Below, in pieces: positions 4,372-21,102 of a DNA stretch of 47,077 nucleotides. Numbering within the stretch: position 1 is the first letter of the stretch; every line of letters starts with the position of its first letter. This DNA comes from a virus (taxonomy: Duplodnaviria > Heunggongvirae > Uroviricota > Caudoviricetes): IMG/VR virus record IMGVR_UViG_2541047907_000002, positions 1 through 47,077 of that record; one strand, written 5' to 3'. Under the pieces are notes generated by a model that worked only from the letters and a program-made list of their open reading frames with translations, did not search any database and was not told the DNA's origin. Position numbers and translations under genes: made by a program.

Positions 4372-4929
4372 TCAACAATGAATTTTTAGTAATTGCTCCA
4401 CAGTCATATTTTTAATTGCACTCCGGTTTACAAGAGTCCAGCCTTGTTTCTCCAGATAAAACTGGAAGGTATCCAGGGTGCAGACCATTGCGCCGTCAGG
4501 AACGGTTTCAGTGAATTTGATATTGCCGTGTTCGTCGAGACGGATAACCAGGGTGCGTCCGTCCCCGTGAATCATTTTGTCGGGAGACGGGGCGTTATTC
4601 TGGCGCAGTTCTTCCTCCATGCGATCGAACTCAGCAATGTAGGCTTCCTTGAATGCAGCTGCTTTTTTGCCGGTGAAGCCCATCACCAGGAAAACGAAGC
4701 CGTTTTTGGTGATTTGGTACATTGGGCGTTTTTTGCCTTGCTCATCAATATATTCGGCGGGCGCAAAATTGCGCTCGCTAAATTTCTGTGAGCATTCCAA
4801 GTTGTCGATTTTTTTCAGAACATCTTTATGCATTTTGCGGAAGAATTCCGCGATGGCGACAGACGTGGTGACGGCACGACCATTTTCTACGGTTACACAA
4901 GGGTGAGAAAGGGTAGGGATAGTAGCCAT
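4372..4929 (-). CDS. Rha-family phage regulatory protein
   Basis: Segment TTSVAIAEFFRKMHKDVLKKIDNL...SERNF...QGKKRPMYQITKNGFVFLVMGFTGKKAAAFKEAYIAEF matches the Phage_pRha pattern as recalled; start placed at internal ATG 4927-4929 preceded by AGAGG; the ORF is open up to 5226, so the true start is uncertain. Confidence 0.65.
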   Translation of the reverse strand: MATIPTLSHPCVTVENGRAVTTSVAIAEFFRKMHKDVLKKIDNLECSQKFSERNFAPAEYIDEQGKKRPMYQITKNGFVFLVMGFTGKKAAAFKEAYIAEFDRMEEELRQNNAPSPDKMIHGDGRTLVIRLDEHGNIKFTETVPDGAMVCTLDTFQFYLEKQGWTLVNRSAIKNMTVEQLLKIHC

Positions 4930-5412
4930 GATGGCAGCCTCTAGTGATAAGTTAGTTAACTCACCACCATGGCTTTCCACGACCATAAAGGTGGTGAGAC
5001 GTACAGGGGTGGAAATACCGGTCACTAGAGAACCCGGCCAGCCTTTCGGCTGCCCTGCACGCCCCACCATAATGCGAATGAGGCTGTGCTTAGCGCATAA
5101 AAAAACCGCTTTGGCGCGGTTATGCGCTCTAGTGAACATCGGGTTTCCACGCCCGGCACCCGTTTTATAAGGTGCAGGTGCACTATAATTCCACCCGTTC
5201 TGGTTTTCAATAGCTACATTCAACATTTTCTCTACCTTTCATCACCGAAGTGAACTTTGTTGATGCGGTGCCTGGTGCCTCCAGGTGACGTTAACCAGTT
5301 AACAATTAACGCCGGAATACAGAAGGATTCCCGTTACGCCAGTAAAAGGCCCCATCACTGTTTTAACTGTTCCGCGTGCGCATAGCCGCATTCACCGCAT
5401 CACAAAATTCAC

Positions 5413-6735: not shown

Positions 6736-6972
6736 TCAGTCAGTTTTTCTGGCTAACCAGCGACGCGCGCCAGTTTCGGTTTTAAACGTTTTGCTTTTGG
6801 TATACGTCATCGCGGTGAACGTGCCGTCCTGGTTTGGGAACACGCCGTACACCAGAGACTCGTTGTTGCCAGGAACGATAGTATCCATGCTGACCTCATT
6901 TCCCCTTAACGCCGGGGTAGCGGAACAAAAACCTGCTGCATAGTTAAAGTTGAACCCTGCCGTCATGTTCAT
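6736..6972 (-). CDS. Hypothetical protein (78 aa), first gene of the leftward early operon
   Basis: GAGG upstream of the start; sits directly downstream of the putative P_L-like promoter. Confidence 0.45.
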   Translation of the reverse strand: MNMTAGFNFNYAAGFCSATPALRGNEVSMDTIVPGNNESLVYGVFPNQDGTFTAMTYTKSKTFKTETGARRWLARKTD

Positions 6973-7039
6973 ACGCCTCGGGCTGGCTACTTACCCCCTG
7001 ACCACTGCCTGGTAACTCGAAGTATTGCCCTGCGTTCTG

Positions 7040-7115
7040 TGGGGCGGGGTGGGTTGGTATGTATATAATGTACTTTGTGTTCAGTGTTGTAAAGTACTTT
7101 AAGTACATTTTATGT
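7040..7115. promoter_or_regulatory. Putative leftward early promoter/operator region (P_L/O_L-like)
   Basis: Three related palindromic boxes AATGTACTTT (7067-7076), AAAGTACTTT (7091-7100) and AAGTACATTT (7101-7110); on the minus strand a TTACAA -35-like hexamer and a TATAT-rich -10-like segment bracket these boxes; the same ATGTACT core recurs between repressor and cro. Confidence 0.35.
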
Positions 7116-7183
7116 GTAAAAAAATGAGATGGGAAAAAGTGAAGCACAAACCCGGAGGGGGACGCTACCGGATTTATGCTGGT

Positions 7184-7603
7184 TTAAGAGGCTTTTTGTT
7201 TTTTCTTTCGTGCTAACTCTTCGTAAATTGCATTGTACTTCTGTTTTTTCTCCTCAAGAGTTTTTAAAAGTTCATCTGTCTCACTGTCAGGGAGCTCGTC
7301 CAGAAGATCAATGATGATTTTTTGTCTTGGATTTAACTCCTGATAGAAACGTACCTGTCCACTTTCTTCTGTATCCTCTCCCAAAAGATAGGTTGGTGTT
7401 GTTCCAATGAGTGTTGCTAATTCCCTTAATTTCTCTCGGCGAGGAATTGTTTCGCCATTAAACCATTTGCTAACCGCTTTTGGTGTTAATTTCATTCGAC
7501 GGGCAATTTCTGCCTGCCTTCCATGTTGTTCATAACCAGCGTTTTCACAGGCTAGCGCAAGCCTACTGGCGAACTCTTTACGCGCTTTATCTTCATGAAC
7601 CAT
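7184..7603 (-). CDS. Phage repressor, XRE-family helix-turn-helix (cI/DicA-like)
   Basis: 139 aa; N-terminal HTH segment QAEIARRMKLTPKAVSKWFNGETIP; divergently arranged with a Cro-like gene. Confidence 0.8.
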   Translation of the reverse strand: MVHEDKARKEFASRLALACENAGYEQHGRQAEIARRMKLTPKAVSKWFNGETIPRREKLRELATLIGTTPTYLLGEDTEESGQVRFYQELNPRQKIIIDLLDELPDSETDELLKTLEEKKQKYNAIYEELARKKKQKAS

Positions 7604-7682
7604 AAGTTCAATGATATTCGCTCTTGAATGTACTGTCAGTTCTGTTATAGCATGTACTCAAAGTTCACATTGTGAGGGTGAT
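7604..7682. promoter_or_regulatory. Repressor/cro intergenic operator-promoter region (O_R-like)
   Basis: 79 bp divergent intergenic region with two ATGTACT boxes (7628-7634, 7652-7658) sharing the core of the boxes at 7067-7110. Confidence 0.4.
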
Positions 7683-7937
7683 ATGAACCAGAAAACACTT
7701 GAAGATGTAATCAAAACTGTTCGCGTTTCTGTTGTGGCCGACGTTTGTGGTGTCAGCCAAAGAGCAATCTACAAATGGATGGATAACGGAAAATTGCCTC
7801 GCACTGAATATACCGGCGAAACAAATTACGCTGAAAAAATCGCTCATGCATCAAACGGATTATTTTCTGCCGATGCAATTTTAACTATTGGCAGAAATAA
7901 AACTACTACGAAAAAGCTGTTGGGAGTTGATTCATGA
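7683..7937 (+). CDS. Cro-like (YdaS-like) DNA-binding protein
   Basis: Start ATG 7683 preceded by GAGGGTG; HTH-like CGVSQRAIYKWMDNGKLP; divergent from the repressor. Confidence 0.6.
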   Translation: MNQKTLEDVIKTVRVSVVADVCGVSQRAIYKWMDNGKLPRTEYTGETNYAEKIAHASNGLFSADAILTIGRNKTTTKKLLGVDS

Positions 7938-8359
7938 AAATCAAGCATGAACACATCCGCATGGCGATGAATGCCTGGGCACATCCGGATGGCGAAAAAG
8001 TTCCGGCAGCTGAAATAACCCGGGCTTATTTTGAGTTGGGGCTGACGTTTCCTGAACTGTACGACGACAGCCATCCGGAAGCCCTGGCTCGCAATACCCA
8101 GAAAATTTTCCGCTGGGTGAAGAAAGACACCCCTGATGCTGTTGAAAAAATTCAGGCGTTGTTACCGGCGATCGAAAGGGCAATGCCACCTCCGCTCGTG
8201 GCCTGGATGCGCAGCCACAGTTCGGAATATCACCGGGAGCTTGTCGAGCGACGGGATCGGCTGATGAAAGATATAGATGAGCTCGTTGCATCAGCGATCG
8301 TTCTGTTCGATCAGATGAATCGTGGTGGTCCGGTGGGAAATATTGTGGTTGTGCATTGA
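7934..8359 (+). CDS. YdaT-like prophage protein (toxin-like family)
   Basis: 141 aa beginning MKIKHEHIRMAMNAWAHPDGEKVPAAEITRAYFELG, which matches the Rac-prophage YdaT family as recalled; start overlaps the cro-like stop by 4 nt. Confidence 0.55.
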   Translation: MKIKHEHIRMAMNAWAHPDGEKVPAAEITRAYFELGLTFPELYDDSHPEALARNTQKIFRWVKKDTPDAVEKIQALLPAIERAMPPPLVAWMRSHSSEYHRELVERRDRLMKDIDELVASAIVLFDQMNRGGPVGNIVVVH

Positions 8360-13411: not shown

Positions 13412-13492
13412 GGTAAACCTCACGGAGTAGGATAGAACACTATTCGATGATAGCACGCTGCCTGTTGACGACAACAGAAATCAGAGACAATA

Positions 13493-20792: not shown

Positions 20793-20868
20793 GGCCCTTT
20801 AGCTCAGTGGTGAGAGCGAGCGACTCATAATCGCCAGGTCGCTGGTTCAAATCCAGCAAGGGCCACCA
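20793..20868 (+). tRNA. tRNA with CAU anticodon, ileX-like (Ile2/lysidine type)
   Basis: Hand-folded cloverleaf: acceptor GGCCCTT/AAGGGCC, D-stem GCTC/GAGC, anticodon loop CTCATAA, T-loop TTCAAAT, 3' CCA; very similar to E. coli ileX as recalled. Confidence 0.8.
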
Positions 20869-20869
20869 A

Positions 20870-20946
20870 CCGCCACTAGCTCATCAGGAAAGAGCATCAA
20901 CCTTCTAAGTTGACGGCGCGAGGTTCGAGTCCTCGGTGGTGGGCCA
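20870..20946 (+). tRNA. tRNA-Arg (UCU anticodon)
   Basis: Hand-folded: acceptor CCGCCAC/GTGGTGG (one G-U pair), anticodon loop CTTCTAA, T-arm CGAGG-TTCGAGT-CCTCG, 3' CCA; unusual C1 start. Confidence 0.6.
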
Positions 20947-20948
20947 GT

Positions 20949-21024
<76 letters not shown>

Positions 21025-21027
21025 TAT

Positions 21028-21102
<75 letters not shown>

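Follow-up and report, generated by a model that had tools for sequence, protein, structure and literature searches.

We found that the GTAC-containing boxes on both sides of the repressor gene in a lambdoid E. coli prophage are very probably (probability about 0.88) the half-sites of five dyad operators of the HK022/933W repressor family, a reading that comes from sequence comparison. The window, by which we mean the whole 47,077-nucleotide stretch that was analysed, is 97% identical to Escherichia phage Tritos between positions 6900 and 8000. Of 5426 complete E. coli genomes, 1047 contain the 700 bp of this immunity region at nearly full length; the region is also present in phages deposited as complete genomes, namely Tritos and the vB_EcoS series. 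The map of five operators and three promoters can be assigned to the immunity type that these genomes and phages like Tritos share. Operators are unannotated in the stretch of the Tritos record examined, and a literature search on 'phage Tritos' returned no match.

The leftward operon opens with a DUF1391/ydfA-like gene (6736-6972, minus strand). The repressor gene, which encodes 139 aa with a Pfam HTH_3 match, lies at 7184-7603 on the minus strand, and an 84-aa Cro-like gene, identified by homology to HK022-type Cro, lies at 7683-7937 on the plus strand. Next come ydaT (7934-8359, plus strand), whose product matches PDB 8BT1 (E = 6e-81), and DnaT-like and lambda-P-like replication genes. Elsewhere in the window we observed four tandem tRNA genes (20793-21099, plus strand); lambdoid and Stx-type phages often have tRNA genes ahead of the late region.

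The dyad unit and the five predicted operators

The first-pass annotation had described three boxes of the form WWWGTACWTT to the left of the repressor and two ATGTACT cores in the repressor/cro intergenic region, and had read them as palindromic boxes in an O_L/O_R-like arrangement. All five are present, in the non-coding DNA that flanks the repressor gene. The left boxes, at 7067-7076, 7091-7100 and 7100-7109, are the only matches to their pattern in the 47 kb; shuffled versions of the window hold a mean of 1.1 matches. The right cores start at 7628 and 7652. ATGTACT has seven copies in the window, four of them within 7068-7658 (at 7068, at 7102 on the minus strand, and at 7628 and 7652). 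The probability that at least four of the seven fall in a given span of 591 bp is 8e-7, the span having been picked after the fact. GTAC itself is under-represented in the window, with 119 occurrences observed against 182 expected from base composition.

We observed that the true unit is a dyad of 15-17 bp, (A/T)TG(A/T)AC-N5-GT(A/T)CA(A/T), with the core GWAC-N5-GTWC, and that each GTAC box is one half of it. The symmetry axis does not fall at GTAC, and the partner half-site of each box lies 9 bp away. The second and third left boxes are the two halves of a single dyad at 7092-7108 (oL2), the first pairs with TGTTCA at 7079-7084, and both right boxes pair with AGTTC, at 7638 and 7662. One dyad, oR3 at 7595-7611, had been overlooked; its halves are GAAC and GTTC, and it contains no GTAC. 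The dyad core occurs seven times in the 47 kb, five of them within 7070-7666, against 2.8 expected window-wide (P = 7e-9 for the given span). The positions given for the boxes were correct, but the boxes are not self-contained palindromes. Similarly, the O_L/O_R-like arrangement stands with a different count, two left and three right operators instead of three boxes and two. The likeness is borne out by the homology of the CI N-terminal domain and Cro to those of HK022 and 933W, by identical offsets from the repressor ATG, and by a left pair that brackets a pL-like promoter.

The left pair consists of oL1 (7068-7084, ATGTACTTTGTGTTCAG, 15.6 bits), which overlaps the spacer and -10 of the leftward promoter, and oL2 (AAGTACTTTAAGTACAT, 21.8 bits), a near-perfect dyad abutting the -35 of the same promoter. 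On the right, oR3 (ATGAACCATAAGTTCAA, or TTGAACTTATGGTTCAT on the repressor strand; 22.5 bits) is centred on the repressor ATG, with oR2 (7628-7644, ATGTACTGTCAGTTCTG, 17.8 bits) and oR1 (7652-7668, ATGTACTCAAAGTTCAC, 19.2 bits) centred at -33 and -57 from it. Centre-to-centre spacing is 24 bp in the left pair and in the right pair, and 33 bp between oR2 and oR3. Scores were computed with a position weight matrix trained on the sites of other genomes, with the window and its Shigella twin left out. Exactly these five sites rank first, at 15.6-22.5 bits against 9.2 for the next, in a matrix whose core positions were preset by the pattern used to gather the sites. Apart from the five, the scan of the window returned no OFR-like or oL3-like extra site and no score higher than 9.2 bits. 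Applied to HK022, the matrix recovers OFR, oR1-3 and oL1-2.

The repressor start codon forms the centre of oR3 (TTGAACnnATGGTTCA), and in the window the GTTCAT half-site encodes Val2-His3. The conserved Met-Val-(His/Gln) N-terminus is encoded by the oR3 half-site, so that protein and DNA are both constrained here (in the window, and at about 2495-2507 in loci L003-L034).

We assessed conservation in related loci from a scan of one genome per species, which returned 35 loci, 32 of them informative. Loci were retrieved by peptide patterns that included the recognition helix (TPKAVSKW); shared specificity is therefore to be expected, and the data show conservation while testing the covariation of motif and protein only weakly. 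Three dyads spaced 24±1 and 33±1 bp were present immediately upstream of the repressor in 29 of the 32 loci, and in 20 of these the third dyad is centred on the ATG. A further pair of dyads 24-25 bp apart lies downstream in 18 loci, at a variable distance of 0.5-2.6 kb. Across 166 kb, 94 of the 142 dyads found fall in the 110 bp upstream of the repressor. Enterobacterales, Vibrio/Photobacterium, Pasteurellaceae, Pseudomonas and Salinicola are all represented among the loci with dyads; no dyads occur in two distant Firmicutes loci (31-34% identity). The HK022/933W operator grammar, down to base-pair offsets, is thus common to prophages of Enterobacterales, Vibrionaceae, Pasteurellaceae and Pseudomonas.

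Among five close relatives, none of 50 half-site core positions varies, compared with 84 of 267 spacer, flank and other non-coding positions (Fisher p = 4e-8). The half-site cores of oL1 are invariant while its spacer varies, oL2 varies at its central or spacer base alone, and oR2 is invariant. Conservation of the boxes in phages with the same repressor had been named beforehand as the test of the proposal, and the boxes proved to be conserved.

The operators of the short-type repressors of Salmonella, which are 62-65% identical from end to end, are laid out in the same way. In two of these Salmonella loci (L041, 3553-4220; L042, 3588-4255) a HigB toxin and an HTH antitoxin are encoded between the repressor gene and OL, in the slot that paaA2-parE2 occupies in CP-933P and rexAB in lambda. 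HK022-type repressor and operator modules were also seen in two records with unexpected labels, an actinomycete (L013, a Streptomyces sp. contig of 1026 bp) and an alphaproteobacterium (L032, a Pseudooceanicola MAG). For the Streptomyces contig, contamination or mis-binning seems likelier than a genuine host range.

Predicted promoters and the proposed switch

A promoter scan placed a pL-like promoter at 7065-7093 on the minus strand, with -35 TTTACA (7093-7088), a 17-bp spacer and -10 CATTAT (7070-7065). A base-for-base alignment with the HK75 pL annotation (TTTACA...CATCAT) is possible, and the promoter, with a start predicted at about 7058, would drive the leftward operon, which starts with the DUF1391/ydfA-like gene. 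Folding of the 88-nt leader downstream of pL gave no RNA structure signal (z = +0.86). Within this leader region, a segment of about 60 bp (7001-7062) has a 96-98% match in 3393 of the 5426 E. coli genomes, K-12 included, against 1047 for the immunity region. The segment may be a shared nut/put-like element or a recombination boundary.

The scan also placed a pRM-like promoter at 7611-7639 on the minus strand (10/12 matches), with -35 CTGACA (7639-7634, inside oR2), 17 bp, and -10 TATCAT (7616-7611). Its hexamers are conserved across loci, and 933W annotates pM at the same place. Because the -10 ends 8 nt short of the repressor ATG and no Shine-Dalgarno sequence precedes this ATG, the repressor mRNA is likely leaderless, with transcription predicted to begin on the A of the ATG (7603) or directly beside it (7604). 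The lambda cI and PaaR2 mRNAs are leaderless (PMC8630535).

A pR-like promoter for cro was read by eye, together with alignment to the annotated HK75 pR (TTGACT-16-CATAAT), at 7625-7652 on the plus strand. It has -35 TTGAAT (7625-7630), a 16-bp spacer and the extended -10 TGt-TATAGC (7644-7652). The -10 is poor, and because it ends in C the promoter scan did not call it; in an O91:H21 relative the corresponding hexamer is TATATT. With pR predicted to start at about 7659, the pR and pRM starts would be about 56 bp apart. The three right operators cover both promoters: oR1 lies over the predicted pR start, oR2 over the pR spacer and the pRM -35, and oR3 over the predicted pRM start and the ATG. 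Centred at -33 of pRM, oR2 would occlude this promoter and would not activate it, so that repressor maintenance would be unlike that of lambda.

These placements suggest the following switch. A repressor dimer would set one helix-turn-helix on each TGWAC half, through the recognition helix TPKAVSKW. At oL2 and oL1 it would cover the -35 edge and the spacer and -10 of pL, and at oR1 and oR2 the start site and spacer of pR, so that with pL and pR covered together both early lytic operons would be off. Since oR2 would also cover the pRM -35, with oR3 on the start codon and the predicted leaderless start, a high level of repressor would be expected to limit its own synthesis. Cro would act at the same sites with a different order of preference. 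We infer here that the 139-aa repressor binds these sites, along with an order of occupancy and cooperativity or looping via its non-S24 tail.

Short repressor, neighbouring regulators and rival readings

Over residues 1-75 the repressor is 58% identical to HK022 CI and 51% to 933W CI (tblastn with residues 1-77 in phage records). Its recognition helix TPKAVSKWFNGE (TPKAVSKW) corresponds to TPKAISKWFNGE (TPKAISKW) in HK022 and SSKGVSKWFNAE (SSKGVSKW) in 933W. The residues K42, K46 and E51 are conserved, and P41 takes the place of S41 in 933W. In an AF2 model, a disordered linker (77-87) joins a five-helix HTH domain (1-75) to a C-terminal helical hairpin (92-138). The protein ends at residue 139 and has no Pfam Peptidase_S24 match, whereas many homologues of 235-240 aa, 62-72% identical in the N-terminal domain, do carry S24. 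In a Foldseek search of PDB the model gave only generic XRE-HTH matches, none at E <= 1e-3, and the C-terminal tail was unmatched. A PDB sequence search gave a single weak match, to the N-terminal domain of P22 C2. When the 64 C-terminal residues were searched by tblastn in phage records, only Tritos and three vB_EcoS phages were found. The repressor is a domain-swapped variant, in which an HK022-type DNA-recognition module is joined to an exchanged C-terminal tail.

In the HK022/933W family it is the LexA-like S24 domain that renders the prophage SOS-inducible. Since the repressor is without an S24 domain, RecA-mediated autocleavage is unlikely. Direct LexA control was also considered; a scan for CTGT-N8-ACAG gave sites at 13462 and 34223, neither of them near the immunity region nor AT-rich in the centre, which lends this candidate no support. 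It is possible, although we hold it for doubtful, that an HK022-type module (N-terminal domain, Cro and five operators) recombined onto a helical tail that RecA cannot cleave makes up an SOS-independent HK022 switch. Such a switch would need another way to flip, through an antirepressor such as C4-RNA/Rha-Ant (4372-5175) or through YdaT/Cro dynamics. About one in five complete E. coli genomes carries this S24-less variant, and cross-immunity against HK022-like phages would be possible given that the operator consensus equals that of HK022.

A 284-aa ORF at 4372-5226 (minus strand) has Ash and Rha Pfam domains and PHROG anti-repressor matches. Its 5' part holds Rfam matches to C4 antisense RNA (80 bits) and isrK (65 bits), at 4987-5074 and 5099-5175. 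The stretch resembles a P1 immI-like c4/ant antirepressor module; the ORF start is probably over-called. We consider the C4/Rha-Ant module a candidate route by which a prophage with the S24-less repressor could be induced. However, in Tritos, whose repressor is the same, dicF/dicB occupies the corresponding stretch.

An alignment from M1 gives the Cro-like protein 58% identity with HK75 Cro, which is of HK022 type, and 47% with that of 933W; a PDB sequence search with it returned no match. By homology it is expected to bind the same operators. In the Tritos record, Cro is annotated as a 108-aa ORF (L001, 4714-5040; start equivalent to 7611) that runs through oR2, oR1 and pR. This deposited start looks too early, because the alignment with HK022 Cro begins at M1 of the 84-aa ORF (7683), which is preceded by GAGGGTGAT.

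An exact inverted repeat (TTGATTcatgaaAATCAA) at 7927-7944 spans the cro stop codon and the ydaT start. The form TTGATT-N6-AATCAA is that of O_M, the footprinted YdaT site of CP-933P (PMC9986795), and the window repeat (TTGATTCATGAAAATCAA) matches this motif exactly; about 0.006 exact matches are expected by chance. It is a predicted site for YdaT, the CII analogue, and probably marks the region of a pRE-like establishment promoter. The region thus combines, as a mosaic, a recognition module of HK022 type with an establishment module of CP-933P type.

We weighed three other readings of the boxes. One holds that they are self-contained GTAC-centred palindromes of 8-10 bp, each bound alone, with three sites to the left and two to the right. 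GTAC is identical to its reverse complement, and AAAGTACTTT at 7091-7100 is a perfect 10-bp palindrome. Yet GTAC is not what is conserved: across 140 homologous sites the second core base is divided between A (54%) and T (45%), while the partner half at the 9-bp offset is kept. Moreover, GTAC is missing from oR3 and from the right halves of oR1, oR2 and oL1, all of which read GAAC/GTTC, and the 933W operator has been found experimentally to be a 15-bp dyad about a central base pair (PMC3317979). We regard individually bound palindromes as very improbable. Still less credible, and close to dismissible, is a clustering of GTAC words by chance or as a compositional trait of AT-rich promoter DNA that no protein binds specifically. 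The regions are AT-rich and intergenic, and at least seven ATGTACT matches arise in 2 of 100 whole-window shuffles, but the clustering probabilities above (8e-7 for ATGTACT, 7e-9 for the dyad core) argue strongly the other way. So do the invariant core positions in close relatives, and the fact that about 30 loci share identical offsets and spacing although their flanking DNA cannot otherwise be aligned.

A third reading leaves the sites in place and changes their ligand: they would be bound mainly or only by the Cro-like protein or another factor, and the 139-aa protein would be a defective remnant and not the immunity repressor. It draws on the missing S24 domain, which HK022 CI, 933W CI and many homologues have, and on the lack of a significant Foldseek match for the whole model, so that the tail is left without a match. 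Against a remnant, the short form and its tail are kept full-length, at 88-100% identity in E. coli and Shigella and at 62-65% identity in Salmonella, and the operators are intact in every case. The immunity region is also widespread, with about 1047 of the 5426 E. coli genomes, phage Tritos and the vB_EcoS series carrying it. The operator cores are under purifying selection (0 of 50 positions vary), and PaaR2 of CP-933P, functionally similar to lambda CI, acts as an immunity repressor (PMC8630535). This reading is improbable, if somewhat less so than the other two. Five dyad operators of an HK022/933W-type repressor remain the reading that we prefer.

Comparison with known immunity systems

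Among the systems compared, experimental binding data come from 933W, and the HK022-type operators come from phage-record annotation. Our HK022 reference is the annotation of the HK75 record HM173637 ('similar to HK022 oR1/oR2/oR3/oL1/oL2/OFR') together with the sequence AF069308. According to Carlson & Little 1993, as cited in PMC8053113, the HK022 immunity region comprises CI, Cro, oR1-3, oL1-3 and OFR. Its operators share the consensus TGWAC-N5-GTWCA with the window (for example HK022 oR1 TGAACTTATGGTTCA and oL2 TGTACTATTGGTACT), and the recognition helices are one residue apart (V44I). In HK75 (HK022-like) and 933W, the annotated oR1, oR2 and oR3 have the window's offsets of -57, -33 and 0 from the cI ATG, with oR3 on the ATG. 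HK022 also has oL2 and oL1 24 bp apart at a pL that aligns base for base. However, HK022 CI carries an S24 autocleavage/oligomerisation domain where the window repressor has a short helical tail; as far as PMC8053113 and the record annotation describe HK022, cooperativity and looping there, as in lambda, rely on the S24-type C-terminal domain. The window further differs from HK022 in having no equivalent of OFR or oL3 above background and YdaT in place of CII. Nun and put sites are absent, the leftward operon opens with the DUF1391/ydfA-like gene, and the OL-OR distance is about 550 bp, compared with about 800 bp in HK022.

Work of the Koudelka laboratory on 933W describes five natural operators and a rotationally symmetric 15-bp site with G-(A/T)-A-C at positions 2-5, where T at position 3 makes binding more than 3-fold tighter (PMC3317979). 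The mutations S41A and K46A confirmed that these two residues of the 933W repressor contact the DNA, whereas K42 and E51 are contact residues in the model only (PMC3317979). Like the window, 933W has three OR and two OL operators; its oR3 overlies the start of cI, its pM and pR occupy matching relative positions, and its K42, K46 and E51 are kept in the window repressor. Unlike the window repressor, that of 933W has S41 in place of P41, and its operators have C rather than T at position 1. Its sites reach only 10-11 bits with the HK022-type matrix, and its repressor, which has an S24 domain, is reported not to bind cooperatively.

CP-933P resembles the window in having a CI analogue that is not of lambda type and a leaderless repressor mRNA, predicted in the window (PMC8630535). 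Both have operator sets in an intergenic region that resembles OR and at a PL-like promoter lying past the repressor operon, and both have YdaT as CII analogue, with the 8BT1 match and the TTGATT-N6-AATCAA site in the window. In contrast, the operators of CP-933P are 18-bp palindromes with the consensus GTTTAGTAA, bound by PaaR2 and YdaS (PMC8630535). The window's operators are of the TGWAC-N5-GTWCA type, and an HK022 Cro-like protein stands where CP-933P has the Cro analogue YdaS.

With lambda the window shares divergent pR/pRM promoters with three operators, a pL with operators beyond the repressor operon, adjacent sites about 24 bp apart and a leaderless repressor mRNA, again as predicted for the window. 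The operator sequence is unrelated, the window has only two OL sites, oR2 overlaps the pRM -35 instead of adjoining it, and oR3 lies on the start codon. A natural domain swap of this kind, an HK022-type DNA-binding domain without S24, could help to separate DNA recognition from induction and cooperativity in lambdoid switches. In conclusion, the switch follows ordinary lambda-like logic within a well-characterised repressor/operator family and involves no new mechanism, and the S24-less repressor is its only moderately unusual element.
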